Shown here one piece after another: positions 7,500 through 29,710 of a stretch of 64,000 nucleotides of DNA. The position numbers and the translations under genes were made by a program. The first letter of the stretch is position 1. Every line of letters starts with the position of its first letter. The stretch lies in the NCBI GenBank assembly GCA_963816145.1, contig CAWFJP010000031.1, positions 224,001-288,000 on the forward strand. The letters run 5' to 3'. The stretch comes from an uncultured delta proteobacterium. Its GTDB lineage: Bacteria; Desulfobacterota; Binatia; UBA9968. A model generated the notes under the pieces. It made no database searches. It had not been told where the DNA came from and worked only from the letters and a program-made list of their open reading frames with translations.

Positions 7500-7765
7500 A
7501 GGTTCGCTTCAGGATCGTGCTATGGAATCGGGCGTGGATTGATTATTAATCCGGCAGTGTGTCGATTAATAAGCAGCGCCCTGCGAGTTGTCGGCAAAGT
7601 ATTGGCAACCGGCATCGAGAGAAAATGTACGCTGCGGGTTATAGCTTGTAAAGGTTTGAGACTGACGCCGGTCCTCGATCCGCCGCATTGGTAAAATATC
7701 GCCCTTGACCGGCTATCGGCCGCGCAATAAAAATGAATCCATCTGGTCGGTCGGCTGGAGTATCC

Positions 7766-8316: not shown

Positions 8317-8493
8317 AGACCGAATGCCACAACTCCGATGGCAATCTGGTGCAGGTGGCAGAGTCTGTCAACGACGCGAGAGCGGTAAGTAGATTACGAA
8401 CGCCTGACACTAAGGCGCGTTCCCGGATCAGAGATAGCCCGCGTCGTCGTGCCGCATGAGTGCCGCCGCTCCACACGAATCTCGATAAATCAG

Positions 8494-8703
8494 CTAGTCG
8501 TCCAGGCGAAATCCCAGTTTGATCGTCACCTGCCAGTAGTCGACTTTGTTATTGGCGACGTAACCGCGCGTGTCGACCACTTGAAACCAGTGGATATTGT
8601 GGAGCGTCTTGCCCGCCTTGGTGATGGCGTTTTGAACGGCGTCTTCCATAGAAGTGTGAGAAGAGCCGGTGAGTTCGACCTGCTTGTAAGTATGATCATC
8701 CAT
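8494..8703 (-). CDS. Dodecin (flavin-binding protein)
   Basis: HTYKQVELTGSS...AITKAGKTLHNIHWFQVVDTRG...WQVTIKLGFRLD, 69 aa; RBS ggagg. Confidence 0.93.
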   Translation of the reverse strand: MDDHTYKQVELTGSSHTSMEDAVQNAITKAGKTLHNIHWFQVVDTRGYVANNKVDYWQVTIKLGFRLDD

Positions 8704-8925
8704 TGGAGCCTCCGTTTAGATTAAGTTCGGAACAAGCCCGTTTGCATAACCAAGGTCTTCCGCTACCAATTATTCAAGCATGGCAGAATGGTGAGTCAAG
8801 CTGAAGAACGAGATTGTTGTGCGCTGAATGTTAGCACCGATGGAGCGGTCTTCCGGCGGCAAGATTGTTGAAACTGCGCCGCTTGACCTCAGCACCCATT
8901 CTTTAACGAGCTCGACTGCCATGCG

Positions 8926-9921
8926 CTAAAACCGGCCTTCTTTTTCCAGCTTCTTCACCGAGCTGTCGTTGACCAGTTCTTCGGCTTTCAAGCGGCGAAT
9001 CTTTTCGTTGTTTTTGCCGAGCAGGCGAATGACGTTCCGGATGCCGTCGACGCTCGGATAGATTTTTTTCTCATAGAGCCCGAGCATGATCTGATAGCCT
9101 TCCTCGGCTTCCTCGACACGCCTGAGGCGCAGTCCTTTGGCGAGACTCTTCATCACCGCCGTCTTGTTCGCCGGGTCGCGAATAAAGGCGAGACTGTCGA
9201 GCAGTCCGCGCAGCACGTTTTCGACGATCGCCGGCGACGACACAGCAAAGCTGCGCCGCGCCATGATTCCCGATCCCTGATAAGGGATCGGCAGCTTTTC
9301 GACGTCGGCGAGGATACGAAAGCCTTTGCTCTCGAGCGCTTTGCCATATGTATAGCCCAAGAAAGCCGCGTCGACGGCGCCGGCGGACAGCCCTTGCGCG
9401 ATCACTCCTTGGTCGCCGAGCGCGCGGAACTGAATGTTGTCGCGCTCGGGCACCAGGCCCCAGTAATCCAACGTCAGCATCGCGAAGATCCACGCGCCGC
9501 CGCTCAAACCGTTGACGCCGATGCTCTTACCCTTCAAGTCCACCGGAGTTTTAATCTTGGGATTGACGACGAAGGCGCCGGTCAGCTTGTTGATAAAGCC
9601 GGCGAGAAAAACCAGATCGGTTCCTTCGGCGATGGCACCGATGTTGGCCGCCGATACCGAGCCCCAGTGGACCTGCGATTCTCCGGAGCTCACCGCGGCG
9701 ATGCCGACCGCGCCGTTGCGCACCTGTACGAGGGTAAGATCGAGCCCATGCTTGCGGAACAATCCTTGATCCTGGGCGACATAAACCACGCCCTCCCGTT
9801 CGCTGATCGCGCCGATGGTCATTACCACCTTGGTCAGCGGCGTGGCGATTTGCGCCATTGAATCGTCGGGAACCGTTAGAAAGATCAGGAGAGTAACCAA
9901 GACGACCCGATGAAGATTCAT
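8926..9921 (-). CDS. ABC transporter substrate-binding protein (NMT1/SsuA-like)
   Basis: Signal peptide, YVAQDQGLFRKHGLD, DLKGKSIGV; start placed at MNLHRVV. Confidence 0.85.
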   Translation of the reverse strand: MNLHRVVLVTLLIFLTVPDDSMAQIATPLTKVVMTIGAISEREGVVYVAQDQGLFRKHGLDLTLVQVRNGAVGIAAVSSGESQVHWGSVSAANIGAIAEGTDLVFLAGFINKLTGAFVVNPKIKTPVDLKGKSIGVNGLSGGAWIFAMLTLDYWGLVPERDNIQFRALGDQGVIAQGLSAGAVDAAFLGYTYGKALESKGFRILADVEKLPIPYQGSGIMARRSFAVSSPAIVENVLRGLLDSLAFIRDPANKTAVMKSLAKGLRLRRVEEAEEGYQIMLGLYEKKIYPSVDGIRNVIRLLGKNNEKIRRLKAEELVNDSSVKKLEKEGRF

Positions 9922-10202
9922 GCTTGCAGGACTCCTAGCGCATTTGTTTGCCGGCAAATTAGGCCTACGAATGCCATATCGGCATCCGCTGAAATTGGCA
10001 ACGCGCGCCATGACGAAATACGCTCGGCATCAACCATCCGGTGACAAAGCGCGCGACCCAATGAGATTGAGCAATCCTCCAACGTAACCTCATTAGAGTC
10101 TTTCAACCTATCGCCGCGTAAGTTATCTGTAGACGATTCGCAGCTGGCCGGCTGTTGTATTGCCGACGCGAGAGCCGGCCGGAGCATCGCGGTATTGAAC
10201 GG

Positions 10203-11423
10203 ATGAATCCTGCAAATTTTTTGACGGCGATCCGCGCCATGGGCAAAGAGCGCATCCGGCTCCTCGGGGTTCTCACCGCCGGCCATTTTGTCATTCACTG
10301 GTTCCAGCAGTTCTATCCGGTGATTTTGCCGGCGCTCAAGTCGGGATTGAATCTGACCAATGTCGAAGTCGGCGCACTGACTTCGGCCCAACAAGTCGTG
10401 GTTGGTCTCGGCCAGTTGCCCACGGGCATGGCCGCCGATTCGATGGTGCGCCATCGCGGCGCGATTCTCGCGTTGTCGCTGGTCTCCATGGGGGCGGCCT
10501 ATTTTCTTTTGGGCCTGCCGCTTTTCATCTGGGCATTGCTAGGCTCGGCTCTGATCGGCTTGGGCACGGCCCTTTGGCATCCCACCGCCGCGGCATCTTT
10601 GTCGAACAGTTTCCCGGAGCGGCGCGCCACCGCGCTCTCCATTCACGGCACCGGCGCGACGCTCAGTGACACGATCACACCGCTGTTGGTCGGCGTGCTG
10701 TTGGCAAATCTTTCGTGGCAGACGGCCGCGCAGGTGCAATTGCTGCCCGGGCTATTATTCGCGTTTCTGCTCTGGCGCGCCCTGGCTGGGGTATTTAGCG
10801 ACAGCAACGCTCCGCGCCAGCGCGTTTCGGCTCAATTTCGCGATGTCGCCGCCGTCGTCAAAAATCCGGCCTTCTTGGGATTGTCGGTTGCCACCGGTCT
10901 GCTTTCCATGTCGCGGCTGATCGTCCTGACTTTCTTGCCGATTTACCTGCAGGAGCATTTGCACTACTCGAGCGTCGCGCTGGGGATTTACATCGCCCTG
11001 CTGCACGCGCTGGGAACCATCTCGCAACCTATTTTGGGCCTGCTCTCCGACCGCTTCGGGCGCAAGGCGGTGCTGCTGCCCTCCTGTCTCTTGCTCGGAT
11101 TGTTTTTCGCTCTATTGGCCGTGGCGCCGCCCGGCATCCCGCTCGGCTTGGTGATCGTCGCCATCGGCCTGTTTTTCTACACGCTTTTTAATATCTTCAA
11201 TGCCGCGGTCATGGACGTTGCCGGCTCGCATGTCCAGGCGGCCACCTACGGGCTGACGTCGCTGATGACTCAACTCGCGGTCATTCCCGCGCCGATGATC
11301 ACTGGTTATTTGATCGGCGCATGGGGCATCAAGTTCGCCTTCGTTTTGGCGGGAGCGTTTCTGGTTATTGCCGGGTTGGTGCTTGCGCCCTTGCAGTTGT
11401 ATCGAGGGACGCAAAACTCGTAA
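10203..11423 (+). CDS. MFS transporter (FSR-like)
   Basis: About 12 hydrophobic segments, GHFVIH, GLLSDRFGRK motif. Confidence 0.88.
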   Translation: MNPANFLTAIRAMGKERIRLLGVLTAGHFVIHWFQQFYPVILPALKSGLNLTNVEVGALTSAQQVVVGLGQLPTGMAADSMVRHRGAILALSLVSMGAAYFLLGLPLFIWALLGSALIGLGTALWHPTAAASLSNSFPERRATALSIHGTGATLSDTITPLLVGVLLANLSWQTAAQVQLLPGLLFAFLLWRALAGVFSDSNAPRQRVSAQFRDVAAVVKNPAFLGLSVATGLLSMSRLIVLTFLPIYLQEHLHYSSVALGIYIALLHALGTISQPILGLLSDRFGRKAVLLPSCLLLGLFFALLAVAPPGIPLGLVIVAIGLFFYTLFNIFNAAVMDVAGSHVQAATYGLTSLMTQLAVIPAPMITGYLIGAWGIKFAFVLAGAFLVIAGLVLAPLQLYRGTQNS

Positions 11424-12298: not shown

Positions 12299-13600
12299 TT
12301 AGAAGCGCGCGTTGATCCATTTTTGCATGTAATCGAAGGTGTTTTTGACCGTGTTAGAATACTGCCCTGGCGTCGTCTCGCAAATCCTGCAAGGGCGAAT
12401 GCCGTGAGAAGCGCCCTCGATGATGATGTATTCCTTGTCCGCGCTGGCCGAGACCTCGTAGTGGATTTCGTTGTCGCGTAAAAAATAATGGCCGCCCATG
12501 CCGAGGATCAGGATCGGCACGGTGATCTTTTGCAAATGACAGGGCGTCGAGTTGTTGTTCGAGCAATAATCGATATCGTCGAGCGCATGTTTGGCGCGGA
12601 TCGCGCGGGTGCCGAGGAAAGATCTGACCGTCAGGAATTTCGAGCCATCGTAGAATGATTTGGCGCGCTCGGGGTTCTTGGTATCGGCGACGCGCACGCT
12701 TTTGACAATTTCGGTTACGATGGTGCCGTCGTTCTTCAGCAGCTTTTGCGGTTTGACCGTGCCGGGATGAATCGTCAAATCCATTTCCGACAGCCGGCCG
12801 GCCTCGCTCTTGTGGATGACGAAGGCGTCATCGTCCTTGTAAGAATATTTGCCGGCTTCGATGGCGCGCAGTTTTGCCAGGGCGGCGTCGACCAGCCGAT
12901 TCATGCGCGCCGCCTGGGCCTTGAAGTAGCGCTCTTGAAATTCCCGCGAGTAGGCGCTGGGTCCGGCCGCATTGAAACCGTTCTTTGGGCTAAACGGATC
13001 GAGCGCGGCGATGATCGGGTCCGGCCTATCGTCGCGCTGCACCGACGGATTGATCGAGCGCAATGTGTTGACGGCGGTGCCCGGATGGGCGTCGCGCAAG
13101 ATGATGCCGTCGGCCGGCGGCAGGCCGGCAAGTTCGTTGGTGCAAGGGATCAGTTTGTTTGCGCCCTGGCAAACCGACGGGCCATTTTGCGCGACGTTTT
13201 GATAGAAGGTCATCAACGGCGCGCCGCCGCTGCCACCGTAAAGCAGAATCTTCGACGCCTTCACAGTGTCTTTCAGATATTTGACGCCGGTGGCGACGTC
13301 GAGCGGCAGGTCGTTCCAATAATCCATCGCTTCGTTGTTGTCCGAGCGGCCGTTCATGCAGAGCACGTAATAGCCGCGCTTGACCAGCTCGGTGCAGGCG
13401 ATGTCGTTCAAGCGGTTGCCGTCTTCGTGCATGTTGACCACCGCGACCCGCGCTTTTACGCTCGCATCCGGCGTGTACAGCACGGCTTTGACGGTCGGAC
13501 TGAGTTGCAGATAGACCGGCGCGTTTTGCGGGAGAGCATCGCGCGCGAGAATCGCGCTGAAGGCGACCATTAAGGAGATTGGGCAAAACCATCGGCGCAT
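12299..13600 (-). CDS. Secreted alpha/beta-hydrolase fold protein
   Basis: Signal peptide MRRWFCPISLMVAFSAIL, nucleophile elbow YGGSGG, C-terminal IEGASH; start placed at 13600 after ggag RBS (the longer ORF overlaps the upstream gene). Confidence 0.8.
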   Translation of the reverse strand: MRRWFCPISLMVAFSAILARDALPQNAPVYLQLSPTVKAVLYTPDASVKARVAVVNMHEDGNRLNDIACTELVKRGYYVLCMNGRSDNNEAMDYWNDLPLDVATGVKYLKDTVKASKILLYGGSGGAPLMTFYQNVAQNGPSVCQGANKLIPCTNELAGLPPADGIILRDAHPGTAVNTLRSINPSVQRDDRPDPIIAALDPFSPKNGFNAAGPSAYSREFQERYFKAQAARMNRLVDAALAKLRAIEAGKYSYKDDDAFVIHKSEAGRLSEMDLTIHPGTVKPQKLLKNDGTIVTEIVKSVRVADTKNPERAKSFYDGSKFLTVRSFLGTRAIRAKHALDDIDYCSNNNSTPCHLQKITVPILILGMGGHYFLRDNEIHYEVSASADKEYIIIEGASHGIRPCRICETTPGQYSNTVKNTFDYMQKWINARF

Positions 13601-13637
13601 AACGAGCTCCTTCGATATAAAATTTAGCCCCCGAGCT

Positions 13638-14657
13638 TCAGCGAAAATAGCGCAACATCTCGGCGTTGTACTTGTTGTAGACGGCGCTCGACGCCGGCTT
13701 GATGACGAAGAGCTTGCGACCTTGCATGAGCCGCGGCGGGTTCGGCAGGACGTCCTTGCGCGCCGGGATGCGGCTGAGTTGGCGCATTGACGTTTGTCCT
13801 TCTTCGGAGAGAATGAAGTCGACGTAGAGCCGCGCCGCGGCGGGATGGGAATTCTTCGCGGTGACGGCGATGCCGATGGGATAGACGAACCAGGGGTCAA
13901 GCGGCACCCAGTCGATGGGCGCGCCGGTTTTTTTGAGCTCTTCGACGCCGGTCGGATACTGCGAGATCAATAATGGAAACTCGCCCGCCATCATCAGCTG
14001 GTTCATCAGCGAGCTGCCGATGCGCGAGTGAATTTTTTGCTTGCTGAGCGCCTCCATGTATTGCCGCCCCCTGTCCTCGCCCATCGACTGGAGCATGGCG
14101 AAGTACCATTCGGTATGGCTCAGGACAAAGCCCATTTTCTCTTTCCACTTCGGCTGCAGCAGCTCCTGATAACTGTTCGGCACTTCATCGGGCTTCAGCA
14201 TGCGCGAGTTGTAGGCCATGGTCACGGCGTTCAAGTAGGTCGCGTGCCAGATAGCCGTCCTTGTCGCGCAGTGCTTCGATATAATCCTTCGCGCTCCGGC
14301 GAGTAGTACTTGGCGAGCAGTCCTTTCTCCGACCAGGTTCATGATTGGAAACACGCTCGATTGATAAACGTCGGCAAGGTTGCTGTTGGTGCGCGCTTCG
14401 AGCAGGTAGCGTGTCAGAAGCGCGTCCTTTCCCGAGCTGTAGAACTCCATGTTGACGAAGGGATATTTTTTCTCGAAGGCGGCCTCCAGCGCTCTGGCAT
14501 CCGAAGCGTTGGAGGAGACGTAGACCATCACCTTGCCTTCTTTTTTCGCGTCCTCGATGAGTTTGGCCCGCTCTTTGGTTTGGGCTTGACCAACGCCAGG
14601 ATTTGTCAATGTAAGAGTAGCCAGTATGGCAAATCTCGCTGTGAGACCGATCTTCAT
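13638..14657 (-). CDS. Extracellular solute-binding protein (Fe3+/polyamine-type)
   Basis: AKKEGKVMVY, LLQPKWK, HPAAARLYVDFILSEEGQ; contains a locally frame-shifted stretch at 14250-14330. Confidence 0.85.
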   Translation of the reverse strand: MKIGLTARFAILATLTLTNPGVGQAQTKERAKLIEDAKKEGKVMVYVSSNASDARALEAAFEKKYPFVNMEFYSSGKDALLTRYLLEARTNSNLADVYQSSVFPIMNLVGERTARQVLLAGARRIISKHCATRTAIWHATYLNAVTMAYNSRMLKPDEVPNSYQELLQPKWKEKMGFVLSHTEWYFAMLQSMGEDRGRQYMEALSKQKIHSRIGSSLMNQLMMAGEFPLLISQYPTGVEELKKTGAPIDWVPLDPWFVYPIGIAVTAKNSHPAAARLYVDFILSEEGQTSMRQLSRIPARKDVLPNPPRLMQGRKLFVIKPASSAVYNKYNAEMLRYFR

Positions 14658-15232: not shown

Positions 15233-18200
15233 ATGTCGAACGCCGACCTTATTCCCCAATCTGTTGATTGCCCCAAACCTCTAAGCATCCACCACATGCT
15301 GGAAATTCAGGCGGACCGAAGGGCCAGCGCTGTTGCCATTGCCGGGTTGGGAGATCGTCCGCTCTCCTTCCGTCAGCTTCTTTTACAAGTAGAGCAAGCG
15401 GCGAAAACACTAAACGCCCTGGGTATCGGCAGAAACGACCGGGTTGCGATGGTAAGTCCAAACGGACCGGAAATGGCTTCAGCCTTTCTCGCCTTATCCT
15501 CGGCCGCTACCTTTGCCCCGCTCAACCCGTCGTGTCGGACCAACGAATTTGAATTCTACCTCACGGATCTCGGTGCCAAGGCGTTGATTGTTCAATCCTC
15601 GGCGGACTCCGCCGCTATCGCAGTCGCTAGAAAACATTCCATTGCCATCATCGAATTGTCGCCATTGGTGGAAGGCGACACGAGGGGTTTTTCTATCCGA
15701 GGTGAAAAGCGGCCAGCCATATCCCAAGGTGGGTTTGCACAAGCAGACGATGTCGCGTTGATCCTCTACACTTCCGGCACAACCGCTAGGCCGAAAATGG
15801 TTCCTTTGACCCATTCCAACCTCTTGGCTTCTGCGGGCAACATTGCAGCCACTCTCCAGCTTAGTGAACTGGACCGCTGTCTGAACGTTATGCCGCTTTT
15901 TCACATCCATGGACTTGTCGGCGCCGTCCTTTCCTCGATCGTGGCGGGTTCCGAAGTGGTTTGCACCTCAGGCTTCGACCTCGAGCAATTTTTCCCTTGG
16001 GTGGCGGAGTTCCGTCCCACCTGGTACACGGCGGTTCCGACCATGCATCAAGCAATCCTAAAACGAGCCCATCGAGACGTCCTATTGGGCCATTCCCTGC
16101 GGTTGATCCGTTCATCGTCCGCCCCATTGCCGCCAACAGTCAAAACAGAACTAGAAGACCTCTTCAAAGTACCGGTCATTGAAGCTTACGGGATGACGGA
16201 AGCGTCCCACCAAATAGCGAGTAATCCACTACCCCCGCGCCAGCGCAAGGCGGGCTCCGTGGGTGTGGCGACCGGTTCGGAGATCGCCATTGTCGACGAG
16301 CAGGGCAAGTTTTTATCAGCGGGCCGGCCAGGGGAGATCCTCATCCGTGGCGCGAATATCACCCCGGGTTACGAGAACCATCCAGAGGCCAACAAAGAAG
16401 CCTTTACCGACGCGTGGTTCAGGACGGGCGACCAAGGCTATCTGGATGAAGACGGCTACCTTTTCATCACAGGTCGTCTCAAGGAAATAATCAATCGCGG
16501 TGGGGAAAAGATCGCTCCACGGGAAGTGGACGATGTGCTGATCGATCATCCTGCGGTTGCACAGGTTGTAACTTTCGCTGTTCCTCATCCGACTCTCGGT
16601 GAGGATGTGGCGTCCGCGATCGTTCTCCATGAGCGCGCATCGGCCACGGAAAGAGAAATTATCGAGTTTGCCGCCGAGCGACTTAGTGATTTCAAGGTGC
16701 CGCGTAAGATCTTCATCGTCGAAGAGATTCCTAAAGGCCCCACCGGAAAACTGTTTAGAGTGGGTCTGGCCGAGAAACTAATGAAGTCGCCCGATCATCC
16801 ACAGAACCTGCCAAAAGCAGAATACACCGCGTACCGCACGCCGTTAGAAAAGGCACTGGCTGGGATCTGGGCCGAGGTATTGCACCTGGAGCGGGTGGGC
16901 GCACAGGACAATTTTTTCTATCTGGGAGGCGATTCTATACTGGCCACTCTAGTGGTCTCTCGGGTGCGCCGAGTTTTGCACCTGGAGCTGCCCCTGATCA
17001 ACTTCTTTGAGAAACCCACCGTGGCGGAGATGGCCTTGAGCCTTGAGACTACCGGTCAGGCAGCACCAGCCCCGCAACCTCCAACTCTTGAGCCGATTTT
17101 CAGAGATAGAGAAATACCACTTTCTCATGGACAGGAGCGCATGTGGTTCATTGATCAACTTGAGAAAGGCACGTCGATTTACAATCGTCCGGTCTTTATT
17201 CGACTCGACGGCGACCTGAAAGTGCCAGTTCTTGAACAATGCCTCAATGAGATCATTAGCCGTCATGAAATCTTTAGGACCACCTTTCCAGCCGTGAACG
17301 GGCAACCGCTCCAGGTCATTTCCCCACTTCAGCCTCTGACCCTATCTGTGAGAGATATCAGTCGTTTGCCAGAAGGCGAGAGAGAAGGCGAAGTGCGACG
17401 TCAAGCTACCGATGAGACCGCGCTTTCATTCGATTTAGACCGAGGGCCGCTGATTCGGGCCGGATTGCTCCGCCTGGGCGAGCAGGAGCACATACTGTTC
17501 CTGACGATGCATCACATTATCTTTGACGGTTGGTCTGAGGGAATACTATTTCAGGAATTGTCCGTGCTCTACGACAGTTTCTCCGCAGGTCAATCGTCGC
17601 CGCTCTCGCCACTTCCTATACAGTATGCAGACTTCGCTGTCTGGCAAAGGCAGTGGCTTCAGGGAGAAGTATCTGACTCACAGCTGGCCTATTGGAAAAA
17701 GCAGCTTGCCGGCGCCTCGGTATTGGAGTTGCCCACGGATCATCCCAGGCCGCCCATTCAGACTTTCCGCGGATCGAAACAATGCTTTTTCGTGCCTAAG
17801 TCCCTGACCGAGCGGCTCAAGGCCCTCAGCCGTGAGGAAGGGACGACGCTGTTCATGACTCTACTTGCGGCCTTTCAGACCTTGCTGCATAGGTACACCG
17901 GAAAAGATGAGATCATTGTCGGCTCACCCGTTGCGGGCCGAAACCGGACTGACATCGAAGGTTTAATCGGGTTCTTCGTCAACACTTTGATCCTGCGCAC
18001 GGATTTTTGCGGTGATCCCAATTTTCGCGAGCTGCTGGGGCGGGTGCGCAAGGTAGCCCTGGACGCTTATGCCCATCAAGATCTGCCCTTTGAGAAATTA
18101 GTAGAGGAACTGCATCCGCAGCGTAATTCGAGCCACTCGCCTCTGTTTCAGGTGCTTTTCGTACTCCAGAATGCCCCAACGAGGGCTCTACGGCTTGCGG

Positions 18201-20395
18201 GACTAACGACGACTCCCCTGCATGCGGAGAGCGACACGGCAACATTTGATTTGAGTCTCTTGATGGTCGAGGAGGCAAACTCACTGAAAGGGACAATAGA
18301 GTACAATACCGATCTGTTTGACGAAGGCACCATCAGTCGGATGATTGGACACCTCCAGATTCTACTGGAGCATATCGTGACCGATCCCGGAACCCCCGTT
18401 TCGCGGATGGCACTATTGACTGGTTCCGAGCGGGATCGATTGCTCGGCGACTTGAATAACACCAACGGAGAATACCCCAAGGACAAGTGCATCCATCAAC
18501 TCTTCGAGGCTCAGGTAGAGCAAACACCGGAGGCTATCGCGGTGGTCTTCGAAGACCGGCAGCTAACCTATCGGGAGTTGAACGCCAGGGCCAATCGGCT
18601 GGCTTACGATCTCAAAAAACTCGGGGTCGGGCCGGAGATGCTGGTGGGCCTTTGCCTGGAGCGCTCCTGGGAAATTGTCGTTGGCATCTTAGGTGTGCTC
18701 AAAGCTGGCGGAGCCTACGTTCCAATGGACCCAGCGTATCCCAAAGAGCGACTCGCCTTCATGCTGGAGGATTCAGACATTCAGGTATTGTTGACACAAG
18801 AACGAGTGATTTCCCATTTACCGCCACATAATGCTCAAGTAGTCTGCCTGGATACGATAGATCCAGCGGCTGAGTGTGAAGCCTCTCAGGCGCCAACCAA
18901 CCCTGTCAACAGAATCACAGCGGATAACGCCGCCTACGTAATCTATACCTCCGGCTCGACCGGGAAACCTAAAGGCGTCTTGATCACTCATTACAACGTG
19001 ACTCGTTTGTTCCAGGCAACTCATTCCTGGTTCCACTTCGACCAGAATGATGTCTGGACAATGTTCCACTCCTATGCGTTCGACTTTTCAGTCTGGGAGA
19101 TTTGGGGATCGCTGCTTTATGGCGGACGCTTAGTGGTCGTGCCCTACTGGTGCAGTCGCTCGCCGGGAATGTTTTACAAACTTTTGAGCGAAGAAAAAGT
19201 GACGGTTTTGAACCAGACACCGTCGGCCTTCGGGCAACTGATTGAGATTGATAATAGCTCAATGAATTCACAGGATCTTGCGCTTCGACTCGTCCTCTTT
19301 GGTGGGGAGGCGCTGGATTTCCAAATTTTAAAGCCATGGTTCGATCGCCATGACGACCGGCATCCACAGTTGGTCAATATGTACGGCATCACAGAAACTG
19401 CGGTACACGTGACCTATCGCCCAATCACAAAAGAAGACCTATGCACGGGCAGGGGCAGCCTAATCGGTGTGCCGATACCCGATCTGCAACGATACGTGTT
19501 GGATCAAAGCCTGAATCCAGTGCCGATCGGGGTGCCCGGTGAACTCTATGTAGGCGGAGCCGGGTTAGGCCGAGGATATTTAAACCGCCCCGAACTGACG
19601 GCCGAGCGTTTCATTGCCAATCCGTTCCGTCCAGGAGCGGGAAACAGGCTCTATCGGTCGGGCGATCTAGTACGTTATCTTGCCAACGGGGACATGGAGT
19701 ATCGGGGTCGTGTTGATGGTCAGGTCAAGATCAGGGGTTTTAGGGTTGAGCTAGAAGAGATTGAGGCGGTACTGCGCCAGCACGCCGATGTGCGGCAGGT
19801 TGTGGTGATCTCACGCGGCGAGAAGCCGGCCGAGAAACGGCTAGTAGCCTATGTGGTTCCCGCTCGGCAGGCGCCCACGGTCAGTGAGTTAAACGGTTTC
19901 TTAAGGCAGAAGCTACCTGAGTACATGGTGCCTTCTGCCTTCATGCTCTTGGACACGCTGCCCCTTACTGCTAACGGCAAGATCGACCGCCGGAGCCTTC
20001 CGGTTCCCGATCAGAACCGACCGGAACAGGACAGTTCGTTCGTAGCACCCCGCACTCCAGTAGAAGAGTTACTAGCACGGATCTGGGGCGAGGTGCTCAA
20101 ACTCGAACAGGTGGGCGTACATGACAACTTCTTCGAGCTGGGCGGTCATTCACTATCACTCACTCAAGTTGCCTCTCGGATCCAACGGGACTTTCTGGTG
20201 TTACTACCGTTACGGTTTCTCTTTGATGCGCCGACGATCGCCGACCAGAGTGCGGCAATTGCCGCAGCTCAACTGGGGCAGGAAGACGCGGCTGAAGTGG
20301 CTCGAGTGCTGGAGGAGTTGAAACAACTCTCGCCGGATGAAGTGACGGCACTACTCGACGCGGAGTGTGGGTCAGGAATATCGGACGACAAATAA
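15233..20395 (+). CDS. Non-ribosomal peptide synthetase: oxalate-CoA-ligase-like adenylation domain, T, C, A (Thr-type), T; no thioesterase
   Basis: A1: YTSGTTARPK, PLFHIHGL, LIRSSSAPL, EAYGMTEASHQIASNPLP. T1: GGDSIL. C: MHHIIFDGWS. A2: FDFSVWEIW, VLNQTPS, VLFGGE, NMYGITETAVHVT. T2: GGHSL. Confidence 0.93.
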   Translation: MSNADLIPQSVDCPKPLSIHHMLEIQADRRASAVAIAGLGDRPLSFRQLLLQVEQAAKTLNALGIGRNDRVAMVSPNGPEMASAFLALSSAATFAPLNPSCRTNEFEFYLTDLGAKALIVQSSADSAAIAVARKHSIAIIELSPLVEGDTRGFSIRGEKRPAISQGGFAQADDVALILYTSGTTARPKMVPLTHSNLLASAGNIAATLQLSELDRCLNVMPLFHIHGLVGAVLSSIVAGSEVVCTSGFDLEQFFPWVAEFRPTWYTAVPTMHQAILKRAHRDVLLGHSLRLIRSSSAPLPPTVKTELEDLFKVPVIEAYGMTEASHQIASNPLPPRQRKAGSVGVATGSEIAIVDEQGKFLSAGRPGEILIRGANITPGYENHPEANKEAFTDAWFRTGDQGYLDEDGYLFITGRLKEIINRGGEKIAPREVDDVLIDHPAVAQVVTFAVPHPTLGEDVASAIVLHERASATEREIIEFAAERLSDFKVPRKIFIVEEIPKGPTGKLFRVGLAEKLMKSPDHPQNLPKAEYTAYRTPLEKALAGIWAEVLHLERVGAQDNFFYLGGDSILATLVVSRVRRVLHLELPLINFFEKPTVAEMALSLETTGQAAPAPQPPTLEPIFRDREIPLSHGQERMWFIDQLEKGTSIYNRPVFIRLDGDLKVPVLEQCLNEIISRHEIFRTTFPAVNGQPLQVISPLQPLTLSVRDISRLPEGEREGEVRRQATDETALSFDLDRGPLIRAGLLRLGEQEHILFLTMHHIIFDGWSEGILFQELSVLYDSFSAGQSSPLSPLPIQYADFAVWQRQWLQGEVSDSQLAYWKKQLAGASVLELPTDHPRPPIQTFRGSKQCFFVPKSLTERLKALSREEGTTLFMTLLAAFQTLLHRYTGKDEIIVGSPVAGRNRTDIEGLIGFFVNTLILRTDFCGDPNFRELLGRVRKVALDAYAHQDLPFEKLVEELHPQRNSSHSPLFQVLFVLQNAPTRALRLAGLTTTPLHAESDTATFDLSLLMVEEANSLKGTIEYNTDLFDEGTISRMIGHLQILLEHIVTDPGTPVSRMALLTGSERDRLLGDLNNTNGEYPKDKCIHQLFEAQVEQTPEAIAVVFEDRQLTYRELNARANRLAYDLKKLGVGPEMLVGLCLERSWEIVVGILGVLKAGGAYVPMDPAYPKERLAFMLEDSDIQVLLTQERVISHLPPHNAQVVCLDTIDPAAECEASQAPTNPVNRITADNAAYVIYTSGSTGKPKGVLITHYNVTRLFQATHSWFHFDQNDVWTMFHSYAFDFSVWEIWGSLLYGGRLVVVPYWCSRSPGMFYKLLSEEKVTVLNQTPSAFGQLIEIDNSSMNSQDLALRLVLFGGEALDFQILKPWFDRHDDRHPQLVNMYGITETAVHVTYRPITKEDLCTGRGSLIGVPIPDLQRYVLDQSLNPVPIGVPGELYVGGAGLGRGYLNRPELTAERFIANPFRPGAGNRLYRSGDLVRYLANGDMEYRGRVDGQVKIRGFRVELEEIEAVLRQHADVRQVVVISRGEKPAEKRLVAYVVPARQAPTVSELNGFLRQKLPEYMVPSAFMLLDTLPLTANGKIDRRSLPVPDQNRPEQDSSFVAPRTPVEELLARIWGEVLKLEQVGVHDNFFELGGHSLSLTQVASRIQRDFLVLLPLRFLFDAPTIADQSAAIAAAQLGQEDAAEVARVLEELKQLSPDEVTALLDAECGSGISDDK

Positions 20396-20617
20396 TGACG
20401 CCTTTTGGCCACGGTGCGTTGGCATTTTACCGCGGAAGATTTTTTCCGGTTGGGGGGTCTCATAGCCCGCGTCGTAGGACGCTGGTGGCGATGACTGCTC
20501 GATGTCAAGCGAGCGCCGGGGTTAAACCGTTGCCGTATGGTTCAAGGGCTGGCCGCGAACAGCTCAGGCAGATGTTTCAAATCTAATCCTGTCAAAACAA
20601 TGCCAGGACGATCTCCG

Positions 20618-21781
20618 ATGAGTAGATCGCTAATCATCTCCGGTCACTATCGCCGTCCCACCGGTTATGGGGGCCATGTCAGAGAAATTGTCCGCGCGTT
20701 GCACAAACTCGGAATCCATGTGCAGCTCGTGGATCTTCCCACTGGTAGCCACGGTGCCTTGCCTGAAGGCAAGCGTGATTCCTGGTTCGATAAATTGCAC
20801 CGCCCGGTCAGTGCCGGCGCCATCCTGCACATTTGTTTACCAAATCAGGCGGAAATTGTTGACGGGATACTCAACGTCAACTGGACAACCTTCGAATCGA
20901 CGCGAATTCCCGAAACCTGGGCAAAGCGCAGCTTGCGACAGGATCTAGTCGTGCTGCCCACCCAATCATCCAAGAAGGCTTGGATGGCAAGCGGGATTAG
21001 CGAAGAGCATGTCAGGCTCTGTCCGCTGGCGGTTGACTCGGGCCGGTTTCATCCGGGCGTCCAGCCATTGGGGCTAGGGCGCCGAAGGGGGCGCAGCGTT
21101 CTTGAATACAAAACAAGATTCCTAAATATTTCTGATTTTATCTCCGCGCCGAGAAAAAATATTCTCGGCATGTTGCGGGTCTGGATAAAAACAACCAGCG
21201 CGAATGATGACGCAATTCTGATCTTGAAGCTAAGTGGTTATAGGTATCGGTGGTGGCGGCCCGATCGATTCAAGCGCACCCTCTCGGCAATCGAGAGAGA
21301 GATCGGCAAGTCGAGAAAGAAAGCCGCTCCGGTAGTTTTTTACGACCAAGTTTTGTCCGAGTCTCAAATGCCCAGTCTCTACGCCGCAGCGACGCATTAC
21401 TGGAGCATGTCCTGTGGAGAAGGTTGGGACTTACCCATGATGGAGGCGGGAGCCATGGGTTTGCATCTCATCGCCCCCGAACACAGCGCGTATACCGCTT
21501 ACCTCGATGAGTCTGTCGCTCAAATGATACCCTCTCAAAGAGTTCCAGCAGATTTTAACGGGGGCAAGGGCTTCATAGGAGGGCTTTTTAATGGCTCTGA
21601 TTGGTGGCAGCCCGATGAAGAAGCCGCGGCGGACTTTGTACGCCAAGCCATTAAAACGGCGGGTAACGGATTGCCGACGGCGAGGGCGCGTATTGCCAAC
21701 GAATTCACCTGGGAACAATCGGCAAAGTGTCTCATCAAGATACTTGAAGAACTGTACGAGCGACATGGCAAGAAGTTTTGA
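20618..21781 (+). CDS. Glycosyltransferase family 4 (GT-B)
   Basis: PTGYGGHVREIVRAL, WTTFES, PRKNILGML, GEGWDLPMMEAGAMG. Confidence 0.85.
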   Translation: MSRSLIISGHYRRPTGYGGHVREIVRALHKLGIHVQLVDLPTGSHGALPEGKRDSWFDKLHRPVSAGAILHICLPNQAEIVDGILNVNWTTFESTRIPETWAKRSLRQDLVVLPTQSSKKAWMASGISEEHVRLCPLAVDSGRFHPGVQPLGLGRRRGRSVLEYKTRFLNISDFISAPRKNILGMLRVWIKTTSANDDAILILKLSGYRYRWWRPDRFKRTLSAIEREIGKSRKKAAPVVFYDQVLSESQMPSLYAAATHYWSMSCGEGWDLPMMEAGAMGLHLIAPEHSAYTAYLDESVAQMIPSQRVPADFNGGKGFIGGLFNGSDWWQPDEEAAADFVRQAIKTAGNGLPTARARIANEFTWEQSAKCLIKILEELYERHGKKF

Positions 21782-21950
21782 ATCGGCCCAAAAAATTTTC
21801 CCGGGCAGAGAAATTTGCAAGTAACCTCAAATCTGCCGGACGACATGAGCGAGTCTTTAGCCAGATGACGCAGTCGAACGAATTTTTATAAATTTTTCCT
21901 TGAAAGAAATCTAAAAGCAGCATTTTTTTGCAACTGTCCAGAGAGATCTG

Positions 21951-23300
21951 ATGAAGATTCTGTTGACGATGAACCTGCCGTATACGCGCGTGTATGGCGG
22001 CGCCAACCGGTCCAATCGCAGCCTGGCCGAAGCGCTCGCTGGTAGACATCATTCTCTGCGGGTGGTGGTGCCTGCGCTCGCCGCCCTCAGCCCAATAAGT
22101 CATCAACAGCTCCTTGAAGAGCTAGCGGCTGAAGGGATTCGCGTGGTCTCTAACGGCGAGATCGACGTTTTCAATTTGCATGGTGTCGACGTACACGCAG
22201 TGGTAGACCCATCCCGACTCCACAGCTATCTGGTGGAGCAAATTCGTGAGTTTACGCCGGATTGGACGTTGGTATCTTCTGAAGATCGGTCACAGAGCTT
22301 GTTGGAGACCGCGTTAAAGGTTCAGCCTTCCCGGGTAATCTATCTGGCGCATACGCCGCAGATGTTTCCGTTTGGGCCGGCCGGTTTATATCCCGGGAAG
22401 AGAAGAACTGAACTTATCGGGCAAGCAAGCGCCGTTGTCACTATTAGCCGGTTTGTCGCCGATTACATTCAAAAATGGACTGGAATCGAGTCGTTCATAC
22501 ACCACCCGCCTCACTACGGTTCCGGGCCGTTTCCGCAATGCGGTCGTGCCGACAACGGCTATGTATTGATGATGAATGCTTGCGCGGTGAAGGGAATCTC
22601 AATTTTCCTAGCACTCGCGCGGGCGCTGCCCGATATACAATTTGCCGCCCTTCCGGGCTGGGGCACGACCACTGTGGACCGGGCGGCCCTCAGCGCGCTA
22701 CCTAACGTGAATTTGTTAGAAAATCGCAAGAATCTCGATGAAATTTTACATCGGACTCGCGCCCTGCTCATGCCTTCGTTGTGGGTCGAGGGATTCGGCA
22801 TGGCCGTGGTAGATGCCATGCTGCGCGGGATTCCTGTCTTAGCAAGTAACTATGGCGGTCTCGTCGAGGCCAAGTTAGGAACGGATTACTTGCTGCCTGT
22901 ACACCCGATCGAACGGTTTGAAGATTATCTTGATGAAAATATGCTTCCGGTCCCGCTGGTTCCAAAGCAAGAGATCGCTCCCTGGCAGGATGCGCTTAGC
23001 CGCTTACTTTCGGATCGCGCATTGCATGAGCGGCAATCGGCCGCGGCGCATGACGCGGCATTGAGATTCGTCTCTCGCCTCGGTGTCGAACCTTTTGAAG
23101 ATTTCTTGCTTCGCCTGGTTACCGAACCGAAGGCAAGCCGCCGGCAAATTTCGGTTACACTGAAAGATCAAGGTGCACAAGGCGCGGAGTCAGGCACAGA
23201 GGGGAGGAGCGAGGCGATCGCCGACCTCACTCCAGAGCAGCAAGCGCTGCTGATATTACGACTGCGTAAAAATGCCGCTAGCCGGGAAAAAAAGCGCTAG
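21951..23300 (+). CDS. Glycosyltransferase family 4 with a C-terminal NRPS docking-like helix
   Basis: YGGANRSNRSLAEAL, VKGISIF, PSLWVEGFGMAVVDAMLRGIPVLASNYGGL; tail IADLTPEQQALLILRLRK. Confidence 0.85.
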   Translation: MKILLTMNLPYTRVYGGANRSNRSLAEALAGRHHSLRVVVPALAALSPISHQQLLEELAAEGIRVVSNGEIDVFNLHGVDVHAVVDPSRLHSYLVEQIREFTPDWTLVSSEDRSQSLLETALKVQPSRVIYLAHTPQMFPFGPAGLYPGKRRTELIGQASAVVTISRFVADYIQKWTGIESFIHHPPHYGSGPFPQCGRADNGYVLMMNACAVKGISIFLALARALPDIQFAALPGWGTTTVDRAALSALPNVNLLENRKNLDEILHRTRALLMPSLWVEGFGMAVVDAMLRGIPVLASNYGGLVEAKLGTDYLLPVHPIERFEDYLDENMLPVPLVPKQEIAPWQDALSRLLSDRALHERQSAAAHDAALRFVSRLGVEPFEDFLLRLVTEPKASRRQISVTLKDQGAQGAESGTEGRSEAIADLTPEQQALLILRLRKNAASREKKR

Positions 23301-23336
23301 CGGTTCAGCGCAGCCAGGCGGCGAAAAGCCGAAAAT

Positions 23337-24362
23337 TCAATGATCGGAAAAATTTTCACGAAACGAATAAATCTTGATACCGTGTTCGGGACTGCATACA
23401 GCTAAACGATTCTTGTGGATGGCAACTCCTTTGGGCCCTCCTTCCATTTTATTGCTCGCGTTAACTGCTTGAAAAATATTGTCCGGACCGACAATTTTTT
23501 GCAACACGGGCGATTGTGACCAGCGCATTTTCCAAAAGCGCTTTTTGGGCTCGTAGACGCTGAAATAGTTAGCTCCCGCATTCGTGACAACTAAATGATT
23601 GGTCTCGGGGGTAAATCCTACGGAGTGCGGGTATCGGAATCCCCGGTCTTTGATGATCGTCACCGGTCGCGGTCCATATGTGAATTTCAGCCGTGAGAGA
23701 ATCGGTTTACGGCGTTGATAAATGCTCACCGTGTGATTGCCATGGTTGGCGATGGCAAGCCAGGTTCCGCATTGCGAAAAAGCCAAGCCATCCGGCCTGA
23801 AGACGCCGTGTTTTAATTCGAAGACAGGTTCCAAGTTAAAGCCGATTGAAGCGCCGGAGGCTTTTCGGTAAAAAATTATTCTGCTGCTTCTCAGATTGCA
23901 CGCTGCCAGGTAATCATTGTCCGGCGGGACAAAAGCAACGCCATCGGTGTAATTTAATCTCGTCTCCGGGCCGCGAATTTCAAAGGCAGGAACCGGACCA
24001 TAATTATCGTTGGCTCGATTTTTTTCATATATGGCAATTGATCCGGCGCGTTGAGCGACAGCGAGCAGTTCGGTGTCGCCCGACAGTGAAAATGACAGAT
24101 CGTGCGGATAGTTTAGTCTCGAGGCAGGTCCGTTGATGCTCCAATAGGGTGTATCTTCGAATGATCCGTCTGGTTTTCTGCGAAACAGAAAGACCGTGTT
24201 AGTATCTGAAGTAGCGACGCCTAGTATGTTCCCCGAAGCCGAAAAGGCTATGCCTTCAAATCTTTGTAAATTATTTGGCGGCGCAAGATTCTGAACGGAA
24301 GCATCACTTGCTTCAATCTCGACTCCGGAGTTGCCAACCGATCCATTTCCATCTCGCATCAC
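23337..24362 (-). CDS. Beta-propeller repeat protein (lactonase/YncE/NHL-like)
   Basis: Repeated blades FEGIAFS, YPHDLSFS, YTDGVAFV, RPDGLAFS, YPHSVGFT, GPKGVAIH. Confidence 0.75.
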   Translation of the reverse strand: MMRDGNGSVGNSGVEIEASDASVQNLAPPNNLQRFEGIAFSASGNILGVATSDTNTVFLFRRKPDGSFEDTPYWSINGPASRLNYPHDLSFSLSGDTELLAVAQRAGSIAIYEKNRANDNYGPVPAFEIRGPETRLNYTDGVAFVPPDNDYLAACNLRSSRIIFYRKASGASIGFNLEPVFELKHGVFRPDGLAFSQCGTWLAIANHGNHTVSIYQRRKPILSRLKFTYGPRPVTIIKDRGFRYPHSVGFTPETNHLVVTNAGANYFSVYEPKKRFWKMRWSQSPVLQKIVGPDNIFQAVNASNKMEGGPKGVAIHKNRLAVCSPEHGIKIYSFRENFSDH

Positions 24363-28705: not shown

Positions 28706-29710
28706 ATGAAACCGTCTGAGGAATCGCTTCGATTCAGTTTATTGACAGTTTTAATAGGGATGTTTTTCGTTTGCGTCACCGTTTCATCCCGAGCGCGCGC
28801 CGCTGAGGTGGCCTCGGTGCGGGCGAACTACGCGGCCTTTAGCGGCGCCTTCGCTCCGCTGTGGATCGCGGCGGATAGAAATCTGTTCACCAAATACGGC
28901 TTGAACGTCGACATCCGCTACATCGCCCCGGCCACGGCGACTCAGGCGCTCATCGGCAAGAACCTCGACATCATAAATCCCGGAGGCGAGATCGTCGAAG
29001 CAGGATTGAACGGCGAACCGGTCGTCTATATCGCCGGCATTATGAATCGCGCGGTGATGTCGATCTATGCGAAACCGGAAATCGGTTCACTGGCCGATCT
29101 GAAGGGCAAGGTGTTGGCGGTGACTGTGCCGGGGTCCACCACCGACTTCGCCGCGCGGGTTTTGCTTCAGCAGGCGCGCTTGACGCCGGGTAAAGACGTC
29201 AAACTTATCTATCTAAAAGGCATGGTGGAGATCCTTACCGGCATCAATCAGGGCAACGCAGATGCGGGCATCTTCACGTCGCCAACGACTTTGAAAGCGC
29301 AACACGCCGGATTGAAGGAATTGGTCAACGTCACCGAGCAGAATATTCCGATGATTCACGCCGCTCTTGCCAGCACCAAAGATTATGTCAAAAGCCGCCG
29401 CGACGACGCGCGGCGATTTTTGCAAGCATATCTGGAAGGCATCAAGATCTCCCGCACCGAAGCCGACTACACCAAGCAAATCATCGGCAAGTATACCAAG
29501 ACCACCGATGCGGCCGACCTGGAGAATTCCTATCAGACATTCTTGCCGGCATGGGAACGATTGCCGTTGGTGCCGGCCGCGGCGGTGCAGACGATGCTCA
29601 ATTTTGCCAGCCATCCCGGCGCAAAAACAGCGAAGCCCGAAACGTTCATCGACAATTCGATCCTTGTAGAAATCGACAAGTCAGGATTCGTCGATAAGCT
29701 TTACAAATAA
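28706..29710 (+). CDS. ABC transporter substrate-binding protein (NMT1/SsuA-like)
   Basis: Signal peptide, APLWIAADRNLFTKYGL, DLKGKVLAV; RBS ggagg. Confidence 0.87.
   Translation: MKPSEESLRFSLLTVLIGMFFVCVTVSSRARAAEVASVRANYAAFSGAFAPLWIAADRNLFTKYGLNVDIRYIAPATATQALIGKNLDIINPGGEIVEAGLNGEPVVYIAGIMNRAVMSIYAKPEIGSLADLKGKVLAVTVPGSTTDFAARVLLQQARLTPGKDVKLIYLKGMVEILTGINQGNADAGIFTSPTTLKAQHAGLKELVNVTEQNIPMIHAALASTKDYVKSRRDDARRFLQAYLEGIKISRTEADYTKQIIGKYTKTTDAADLENSYQTFLPAWERLPLVPAAAVQTMLNFASHPGAKTAKPETFIDNSILVEIDKSGFVDKLYK

Follow-up and report, generated by a model that had tools for sequence, protein, structure and literature searches.

The glycosyltransferase gene at positions 21951-23300 of the window (the whole 64,000-nucleotide stretch of DNA that was analysed) ends in a docking-type helix, and the nonribosomal peptide synthetase (NRPS) encoded upstream of it ends in an acidic two-helix tail. 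We consider it probable (roughly 0.6) that the glycosyltransferase (GT) docks on the last carrier domain of the NRPS, T2, and glycosylates the acyl-amino acid tethered there. The enzyme is also likely a member of a large glycosyltransferase family that is integrated into NRPS assembly lines. Observed directly were the two motifs and how well they are conserved, the domain fusions, the order of the genes, the matching of carrier tails with helical heads and a breakpoint in DNA homology; physical binding and action on the carrier are what we infer. The features concerned are as follows.

15233..20395, + strand: NRPS, 1720 aa, with A1 (fatty-acid-ligase-like), T1, C, A2 (amino-acid) and T2 by Pfam and NCBIfam
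20054..20272, + strand: T2 carrier domain of the NRPS, residues ~1608-1680 (Pfam PP-binding 1613-1676)
20273..20392, + strand: acidic two-helix NRPS tail after T2, core AEVARVLEELKQLSPDEVTALLDAE
20537..21781, + strand: divergent GT-B-like protein, 414 aa, between the NRPS and GT4, without a docking helix
21951-23300, + strand: GT4 gene, 449 aa, with four GT4 Pfam families above their cut-offs
21951..23126, + strand: GT4 catalytic domain of GT-B fold, residues 1-392, by Pfam, model and Foldseek
23127..23216, + strand: disordered, poorly conserved linker of GT4, residues 393-422
23217..23300, + strand: docking-type helix IADLTPEQQALLILRLRK, basic end (NAASREKKR) and stop codon
23301..23336, no strand: breakpoint region; L081 and L082, two fused relatives, are homologous at the DNA level up to about nt 23307
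23337..24362, - strand: convergent beta-propeller gene with weak lactonase/NHL matches

The Pfam order of domains in the NRPS is AMP-binding, PP-binding, Condensation, AMP-binding and PP-binding, and no thioesterase (TE) was found by Pfam in its 1720 residues, in agreement with the first-pass annotation. By NCBIfam, a fatty acid ligase of FadD7 type comes closest to A1 with 430 bits, which is below cut-off; for A2, TIGR01733 exceeds its cut-off. T2 has its serine motif, GGHS, at residue 1637, and the tail runs on directly from this domain. The acidic terminal helix reported in the first reading was recovered: the tail core AEVARVLEELKQLSPDEVTALLDAE occupies residues 1687-1711 (nt 20291-20365), and the net charge over the final 45 residues is -8. 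This tail can be aligned with those of 47 carrier domains encoded ahead of GT genes, and the consensus across 48 sequences is LxELxxLSxEEVxALL.

GT4 exceeded the cut-offs (in brackets) of PF20706 with 46.1 bits (26), PF00534 with 44.3 (26.4), PF13692 with 41.3 (27) and PF13439 with 30.0 (28.5). Its AlphaFold model has the two-Rossmann GT-B fold (pLDDT 87.9, pTM 0.83), and Foldseek gave a probability of 1.00 against BshA, MshA, PimA and glycogen synthases. In an alignment of 27 sequences G17, K214 and E280 are invariant, and the window has D288 at the second acidic position; the Gly-rich N-terminal loop, the Lys and the E-x7-E motif are what we take to be the donor-binding and catalytic residues of GT4 enzymes. 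The retaining GT4 enzymes BshA, MshA and PimA share the GT-B fold (best Foldseek TM-scores ~0.72-0.74, with BshA 3mbo and PimA), and weak NCBIfam matches to BshA and MshA were obtained; according to PDB titles the acceptors of these two are small hydroxy compounds. However, identity to the window's enzyme is only 15-17%, and all three are free-standing, with neither a docking helix nor NRPS fusion partners. Beyond the catalytic domain, the earlier description of a flexible linker followed by IADLTPEQQALLILRLRK proved accurate. Model pLDDT falls below 50 at residues 395-426, IADLTPEQQALLILRLRK covers residues 423-440 (nt 23217-23270), and helices are predicted at 418-424 and 428-448, flanking P428. 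The tail is amphipathic, with a net charge of +3 over the final 29 residues; no Pfam family matches the helix, and TubC_N (PF18563) is absent there.

The NRPS and GT4 genes are not directly adjacent because a helix-less GT gene intervenes. This ORF, 20537-21781, has Pfam GT4 matches below cut-off (E 0.0017) and an NCBIfam match to TIGR04047 that is also below cut-off (E 6e-10); its true start is likely near nt 20618, since homologs align from residue 27. Homologs lie between the NRPS and the GT in L001, L002, L081-L083, L087, L113, L127, L129 and L130. On the other side, the convergent beta-propeller gene also follows the GT in L083, L084, L086, L096 and L124 and bounds the cluster at this end in the stand-alone lineage. 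No product-releasing enzyme was found.

A search of 1.84 billion representative sequences with GT4 recovered 507 proteins at E<=1e-30, and the best 150 of these were mostly long NRPSs with an N-terminal GT. Pfam analysis of 16 of these relatives revealed the architectures GT-C-A-T, GT-GT-C-A-T, GT-GT-TE and an internal A-T-GT-C-A-T, and in one-genome-per-species data 482 of 535 candidate stretches contained a gene for a relative. We then counted the helix in 265 family proteins, 232 of which, N-terminal or stand-alone, extend for 25 residues or more past the GT. A helix-profile match was present in 189 of the 232; many of the other 43 show a degenerate helix by eye. None of three forms with a carrier domain fused upstream has the helix, a small count in which the three may be related. 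The remaining 30 relatives end or continue within fewer than 25 residues after the GT (28 of the 265 end there, some of them partial). The helix is retained in GT relatives down to ~40% identity. Fused relatives carry it ahead of C, TE or T domains (GT-helix-C-A-T, GT-helix-TE), and it also stands at the N-terminus of GT-less subunits that start with C; in T-GT-C fusions the GT sits between the carrier and the next catalytic domain. A cassette that recurs among the relatives consists of FkbH-T with an acidic tail, GT-helix and GT-helix-TE, and a reduced FkbH-T plus GT copy occurs in the window's own genome. We count this cassette and the T-GT-C fusions as evidence for action on carrier-bound substrates. 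The GT family, the acidic carrier tail and the post-GT helix of the cassette are all as in the window; its loader, in contrast, is FkbH (glycerate) and its second GT carries a TE, whereas the window has an acyl-amino-acid NRPS and no TE.

Helices of the L(S/T)PE(K/Q)xALL type commonly begin NRPS subunits and pair with acidic LSxxEV tails of the preceding subunit. The first-pass annotation had stated this rule, and although no statement of it for this helix motif was found in the literature examined, it held empirically. Among 60 carrier-ending ORFs from other genomes that have a GT directly downstream, 57 carry the acidic two-helix tail, and five of six acidic tails that seemed to precede a 'plain' C domain were found on inspection to precede a helix-type head. 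Carrier tails with a short motif, not acidic two-helix tails, precede TubC_N heads (4/4 checked by Pfam). Structure prediction of the NRPS tail with the GT tail, as the annotation had proposed, lends weak support to tail-helix binding, with an ipSAE of 0.55 against 0.00 for the best of three controls; the runs share at least 92% of contacts, and partner pLDDT is at least 56. The mark used is one that 116 of 157 solved complexes attained, as did 2 of 215 mismatched pairs; these counts hold only roughly, given the use of own alignments. At values of 0.60 or less it was attained by only 18 of the 157 solved complexes and by both of the passing mismatches.

The annotation had offered docking and a lost fusion as alternatives. 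The two are not mutually exclusive, and parts of both stood; its suggestion of off-loading onto a glycan found no support. At 88-89% identity, L081 and L082, and at 73-74% L001, L002 and L087, run on past the helix into a condensation domain. When window positions 23101-23700 were compared by blastn with L081 and L082, only query positions 1-207 aligned, so that homology ends ~7 bp past the GT4 stop codon; beyond this breakpoint it persists in the stand-alone relatives L083, L084 and L086. With close relatives entering a C domain and DNA homology ending at the stop codon, the downstream modules were therefore lost, and the helix is C-terminal in the window because of that loss. Many GT homologs thus do continue into C, TE or T domains, as the annotation had asked, but the stand-alone clade does not: the window's GT ending is common to 30 stand-alone relatives, so the case in which every close homolog continues and this copy is a lone truncation does not apply. 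On the tree this clade is nested among fused forms, and the stand-alone GT-helix was in all likelihood derived from a GT-helix-C-A-T subunit that lost everything past the helix, a loss by which an elongation junction would have become a terminal glycosylation step.

The same events could have left the helix as a mere leftover, the former N-terminal docking element of the lost subunit that now binds nothing, with the GT using a free substrate. The continuation of close relatives into C, the position of the breakpoint and the nesting of the clade are all as expected from this, and some distant stand-alone relatives are tail-less. We nevertheless think it unlikely. Mean pairwise identity among 26 stand-alone relatives is 0.922 in the helix, 0.844 in the core, 0.448 in the linker and 0.524 at the end, making the helix the best-kept part of the C-terminal third; moreover, GT-helix proteins that stand alone are seen again in many distant lineages, adjoining acidic-tailed carriers. 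Conservation of the helix after the loss and the acidic-tail junctions speak for the docking option, to which the fold test adds weak support.

An equally improbable alternative is that the helix works and that its partner is not, or not only, the neighbouring NRPS: any of some 30 acidic-tailed carriers might serve. The window's own genome encodes at least 31 carrier-ending proteins with a similar acidic tail (LxELxxLSxEE), many of them stand-alone A-T proteins. A helix-profile search of the six-frame ORFs of this 7.8-Mb genome returned GT4 as the only strong match (43.1 bits; runner-up 12.5 bits among 39,697 ORFs). With so many tails and one strong GT helix, the acidic tail must have other partners or roles. 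For other docking classes, promiscuity is documented (PMC9113145). Against a partner elsewhere, the neighbouring NRPS tail ranked clearly first among 52 own-genome carrier tails (36.7 bits, next 26.2) when scored with a profile of the 47 GT-partner tails, all taken from other genomes, and the order NRPS / helix-less GT / GT-helix is kept in at least 10 related loci.

Membrane-binding amphipathic helices occur in GT4 enzymes, and the amphipathic, basic tail of this one might serve, as in some GT-B enzymes, for membrane anchoring or self-association; we regard this as very improbable, as the same helix lies between GT and C domains of soluble megasynthases and begins GT-less C subunits, its type tracks that of the upstream carrier tail, and several lineages with a basic tail have a neutral or acidic helix, which fits a protein partner and not a membrane. 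As further evidence for tail-helix pairing, across 68 distinct pairs, with shared ancestry uncorrected, tail and helix net charges are anticorrelated (Spearman -0.56, p 8.6e-7; Pearson -0.73), sign reversals included. A phylogeny-controlled version of this test was underpowered, as supported branches yielded only 4 independent pairs (same direction ~2.5, opposite ~0.1, median p 0.5).

No docking-domain PDB chain was matched at E<=10 by phmmer with either tail or by a 49-sequence profile. Class 2 PKS docking domains, in which the acceptor side is a coiled coil ahead of a KS, were considered (CurG/H type) and rejected: a KS partner is absent, and the profile misses 4MYY, 4MYZ and 6TDN. The closest likeness is to the PAX-peptide NRPSs. 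In PaxA T1-CDD / PaxB NDD (PDB 7B2B, 7B2F), the last carrier helix and a short helix at the C-terminus make up a V, which interlocks with an N-terminal helix, proline kink and helix ahead of the C domain (PMC8251938). Both PAX-type features (7B2B, 6TRP) recur here, the acceptor in the predicted helices 418-424 and 428-448 about P428 and the donor, by sequence, in helices that follow the carrier directly. Unlike PaxA, whose tail has 19 residues, the window's NRPS has a tail of ~40, and the acceptor helix here follows a glycosyltransferase and does not start a subunit; the likeness is one of predicted structure. In the three-helix bundle of PaxB/PaxC (PDB 6TRP), one acceptor helix docks into a two-helix post-carrier donor tail through hydrophobic Leu/Val contacts and salt bridges (PMC9113145), and such salt bridges fit the charge matching of tail and helix pairs; the window's tails have no sequence match to it. 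COM domains, in which according to the same text the donor helix follows an epimerisation domain and the junction is E/C (PMC9113145), were rejected for an NRPS that ends in T and has no E domain by Pfam. Docking by SLiM and beta-hairpin (TubC_N) recruits TE, MT, reductase and halogenase, with one tail serving several partners; no glycosyltransferase is among the partners listed in the portion available (PMC9113145). The window's carrier tail would likewise recruit any protein with a matching head, but the pair is of a different structural class and the GT tail has no TubC_N domain.

In the mechanism we favour, docking on T2, the NRPS would build an N-acyl-aminoacyl thioester on T2. The proline-kinked, basic amphipathic helix at the GT C-terminus would form the acceptor side of a helical docking pair, and the acidic two-helix extension after the carrier domain its donor side. 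The T2 tail would capture the helix, hung on a disordered tether of ~30 residues, and by holding it would keep the GT4 active site beside the phosphopantetheine arm. GT4 could then move a sugar from a nucleotide sugar to an assumed hydroxyl of the tethered intermediate, the acceptor atom and the sugar being presumed; the helix-less GT-B of 20537-21781 probably adds or extends a sugar, and a separate enzyme would presumably release the product.

Glycosylation of nonribosomal peptides is usually regarded as a step that follows release. No account of a GT domain of this kind, or of the cassette, turned up in the literature searched, mostly outside subscription journals. Tentatively, and at slightly less than even odds, we propose that this GT4 family represents a so far uncharacterised domain for in-line glycosylation in NRPS lines that acts on carrier-tethered intermediates across Acidobacteriota, Chloroflexota, Verrucomicrobiota, Cyanobacteria, Bacteroidota and others. 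It may be fitted into junctions through a helical pair for which Pfam has no model, the acidic two-helix carrier tail and the proline-kinked basic helix, this same helix allowing one tail to recruit by turns a GT, the next C domain or a second GT-TE; module loss, as in the window, would turn it into a terminal sugar-capping step. Being short, portable and apparently charge-tunable, the helix/tail pair is a candidate means of coupling tailoring enzymes to engineered assembly lines. With a single dimodular NRPS, a pair of GTs and no TE, the window would offer a minimal test system. If the proposal is true, a GT between carrier and condensation domains, or docked on a tail, means that sugars are added on-line, and structure prediction would change for hundreds of orphan clusters.

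The genes considered here are arranged in the window as follows, with the NRPS, the middle GT-B-like gene and the GT4 gene all on one strand:

5823-7499, -, TIR-domain protein (558 aa) with N-terminal PF13676 (E 1e-24) and a weak ThsB-TIR match
8926-10011, -, NMT1/THI5-like solute-binding protein
12299-13900, -, ORF with a weak Hydrolase_4 match below cut-off and no NCBIfam match
15233-20395, +, NRPS (1720 aa) with Pfam AMP-binding, PP-binding, Condensation, AMP-binding and PP-binding domains and no thioesterase
20537-21781, +, divergent GT-B-like protein (414 aa), every GT4 match below cut-off
21951-23300, +, GT4 glycosyltransferase (449 aa), passing four Pfam GT4 models
23337-24362, -, beta-propeller gene, lying 36 bp beyond the GT stop codon
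24756-25814, +, NMT1/THI5-like solute-binding protein
28706-29710, +, NMT1/THI5-like solute-binding protein

The TIR-domain gene is found upstream of the NRPS at a distance of about 8 kb, and the three solute-binding protein genes flank the NRPS-GT genes and span within 21 kb. The window yielded no thioesterase (TE) or other enzyme for product release; the ORF at 12299-13900 (-) has only its sub-cut-off Hydrolase_4 match. The first adenylating domain of the NRPS is nearest to fatty-acid ligases (best match FadD7-type, 430 bits, below the model's cut-off), and the second, an amino-acid adenylation domain, matches TIGR01733 above cut-off. As a whole domain, the latter has LgrA's second A domain as its nearest match (656 bits), and its pocket region is nearest to ObiF1, 5n9w and CytC1. 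Its first pocket residues, counted from the standard positions, appear to be D-F-W-N, which might point to threonine.

The NRPS ends in an acidic helix, as the first-pass annotation had proposed: the motif AEVARVLEELKQLSPDEVTALLDAE occupies residues 1687-1711, and the final 45 residues carry a net charge of -8. The GT4 protein ends in IADLTPEQQALLILRLRK (residues 423-440) followed by NAASREKKR. An AlphaFold model based on a 27-sequence alignment (mean pLDDT 87.9) bore out the proposal that this end is a helix behind a flexible linker, with a confident GT-B core up to residue 391, disorder at residues 395-426 and a helix at 428-448. By Foldseek the core groups with BshA, MshA, PimA and glycogen synthases.

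Relatives of this GT were numerous, with 1676 recovered out of 8000 candidates scored in a word-indexed search, and 4861 at E<=1e-3 (507 at E<=1e-30) in an exhaustive search of representatives. Most of the top 150 representatives were long NRPSs with the GT at the start. Pfam analysis of 16 top representatives gave the architectures GT-C-A-T, GT-GT-C-A-T, GT-GT-TE, GT-C-TauD and a GT1-GT4 fusion (A, adenylation; T, carrier; C, condensation), as well as three proteins with an in-line GT (A-T-GT-C-A-T). Domain searches and an iterated helix profile were then applied to all 265 family proteins; 30 of them, in which the protein end or the next part lies less than 25 residues from the GT, were left out of helix scoring. 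Of the 232 proteins whose GT is N-terminal or stand-alone and is followed by 25 or more residues, 189 have the helix by profile; what comes next is a C domain in 71, a TE in 5, a T domain in 2 and the protein end in 111. Among the other 43, many have a degenerate version by eye. GTs with a carrier domain fused upstream had the helix in 0/3 cases, a count that is only a hint since there are so few of these internal forms and they may be related to one another. A GT inside the subunit (C-A-T-GT-C-A-T) and without the helix was also seen in L047:2966-10216 and L050:5328-12578 (both Bacteroidales) and in proteins P0145, P0155 and P0179, where a tail of the short-motif kind and a TubC_N head join the next subunit instead. 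Three stand-alone GTs of about 485 aa (P0076, P0088, P0093) carry the basic helix and, beyond it, have an acidic tail of the LSEEEAQALLEKE type themselves, and P0066 (575 aa) reads GT-helix-T-acidic tail; these four look like adapters that could dock on both sides.

To place the helix in its genomic setting, one genome per species was scanned, yielding 482 relatives in 535 candidate stretches, and 80 loci were kept (Acidobacteriota, Chloroflexota, Verrucomicrobiota, Cyanobacteria, Bacteroidota, Nitrospirota, Myxococcota and others). For 59 GT genes, the adjacent same-strand upstream gene ends in a carrier domain plus a tail of 19-62 residues, with a gap between the two genes of mostly <40 bp. 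The aligned tails follow the pattern LxELxxLSxEEVxALLxxE and are continuous with the carrier domain. A first acidic-tail profile, drawn from paralogous tails of the window's own genome, was too narrow (25 of the 59 tails called) and was replaced by a looser, less specific pattern. With the latter, the acidic two-helix tail was found in 57/60 carrier-ending ORFs directly before a GT, compared to 6/16 control ORFs preceding a C domain without a profile-detected helix. On inspection, five of these six acidic-tailed controls are followed by a head with the same kind of helix, e.g. LSQEKRRLLELLLLEEKG. The remaining 10 controls have different tails, and TubC_N-type beta-hairpin heads follow five of them. 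Pfam assigned TubC_N to 4/4 heads tested and no family to three helix-type heads and the window's GT tail; a jackhmmer search from the TubC_N head of P0179 against the locus ORFs gave no matches. Judged by sequence, these loci thus hold two docking systems side by side, and the type of the tail matches that of the head.

The docking classes named in a review (PMC9113145) are COM, PAX three-helix, beta-hairpin/SLiM and PKS class 1 and 2. Among these, the PAX type (6TRP; PMC9113145), in which one acceptor-side helix docks into a donor tail of two helices, is closest in kind. Closer still than 6TRP to the NRPS tail and GT helix is the PaxA T1-CDD/PaxB NDD interface (7B2B), in which, according to PMC8251938, the last helix of the carrier and a short C-terminal helix interlock with a helix-proline kink-helix element; that paper describes T1-CDD/NDD-like interfaces as widespread, cyanobacteria included. 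When the NRPS tail, the GT tail and a 49-sequence helix profile were searched against PDB sequences, only designed repeat proteins and chance matches came back and no docking domain, so a likeness of design to the PAX type is shown, membership is not. Docking heads of the beta-hairpin class are known to recruit tailoring enzymes (PMC9113145). In the literature searched, neither a GT as docking partner nor an acceptor-type helix after a catalytic domain was found.

The genome that contains the window comprises 7.8 Mb in 31 contigs. Among its 39,697 six-frame ORFs, the helix profile scored 43.1 bits on the window GT and 12.5 on the next best. The acidic tail is not private to the NRPS/GT pair: it occurs on at least 31 proteins that end in a carrier domain, mostly stand-alone A-T proteins. 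Scored with a profile built from 47 tails of GT partners in other genomes (window row excluded), the window NRPS tail ranks first of 52 (36.7 bits; next 26.2), a ranking to which shared ancestry of the NRPSs may contribute. About 25 paralogous A-T didomain proteins of ~650 aa, all stand-alone, are spread over many contigs (e.g. C11:146162-148129, C13:225174-227162, C3:262533-264545), including two on the window's contig outside the window (C31:113534-114991, C31:177509-181117). They share an acidic LDELESLSDEEAQRLV-type tail and the N-terminal motif LPPEQEAIRAKCFHPSGxFVEF, which opens like the docking helix (L-P-P-E-Q-x-A-I).

The pairing of NRPS tail with GT tail anticipated in the first-pass annotation received weak support from structure prediction: folding the last carrier domain plus tail (48-row alignment) with GT residues 396-449 (27-row alignment) gave an ipSAE of 0.55, against 0.00 for the best of three controls, with contacts agreeing at >=92% between runs and a partner pLDDT of >=56. 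In the benchmark the mark was reached by 116/157 solved complexes and 2/215 mismatched pairs, and passes at <=0.60 comprised only 18 of the 157 solved complexes and both passing mismatches; these counts hold only roughly here, since the alignments were self-built. Tail and helix net charges were anticorrelated over 68 distinct adjacent pairs (Spearman -0.56, p 8.6e-7; Pearson -0.73, shared ancestry not taken into account), and lineages with a neutral or basic tail carry a neutral or acidic helix. A phylogeny-controlled test on the GT-domain tree was underpowered, with four independent contrasts on supported branches (helix follows tail ~2.5, opposes ~0.1, median p 0.5). Given the uncorrected ancestry and the four contrasts, charge matching of tail and helix is suggestive, not established.

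Continuation of GT homologs past the helix into further domains, the check proposed in the first-pass annotation, was seen for some relatives and not for others. The helix is followed by a C domain in L081 and L082 (88-89% identity), L087 (73%), L001 (74%) and L002 (73%), while five metagenome contigs (L083, L084, L086, L096, L124; 79-93%) have the window's ending and its convergent propeller gene. Truncation by an assembly or frame error was rejected, as these five independent contigs agree in the stop and in the convergent gene downstream. The helix-less GT lies between NRPS and GT in both fused and stand-alone kinds. A quick maximum-likelihood tree was built from 79 GT domains (rows with <330 aligned residues or several GTs excluded). 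The window falls in a supported 32-row clade (SH-aLRT 98) of 30 stand-alone rows plus the fused L081 and L082, and the nearest neighbours of this clade are fused. Homology of the window to L081 or L082 at the DNA level spans the helix and ends ~7 bp beyond the window's stop codon. The simplest reading of these sequences, with the tree rooted by midpoint only, is that the GT was once fused, as had been proposed, and that the downstream modules were lost after the helix. Among 26 stand-alone relatives, mean pairwise identity was 0.922 in the helix, 0.844 in the catalytic core, 0.448 in the linker and 0.524 in the last eight residues, a pattern indicating that the helix remained under constraint after module loss. 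In L002 (Gammaproteobacteria MAG), the GT-helix-C ORF at 7899-9884 ends ~180 residues into the C domain although the contig continues; it may be a fusion in decay, at a stage between fused and stand-alone.

A three-gene cassette, FkbH-T (acidic tail) / GT-helix / GT-helix-TE, in which two helix-bearing proteins accompany one acidic tail, was observed mainly in Bryobacteraceae and other Acidobacteriota (L025, L026, L039, L043, L045, L052, L053, L056, L061, L065, L066, L068, L080, L100-L108 and L128); its FkbH domain matches TIGR01686 (E 2e-92). A second carrier/GT pair in the window's own genome (L131, C30:152000-166000; ORFs 8815-11016 (-) and 7475-8776 (-)) consists of an acidic-tailed FkbH-T protein (TIGR01686, E 2e-88) and, directly after it, a paralogous GT4 whose helix, LPAEKLAALAAHLKK, is divergent; lacking the GT-TE, the pair represents a reduced form of this cassette.

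Nothing relevant on an NRPS-embedded GT domain or carrier-bound glycosylation was found in the literature searched; PtmJ of pactamycin biosynthesis reportedly glycosylates a carrier-bound polyketide and would be a precedent for the latter. In T-GT-C fusions the GT is placed between a carrier and the catalytic domain that follows, and the GT-helix-TE fusions and the FkbH-T cassette point in the same direction, toward a tethered substrate. From this architecture we infer that the GT would act on carrier-tethered substrates.
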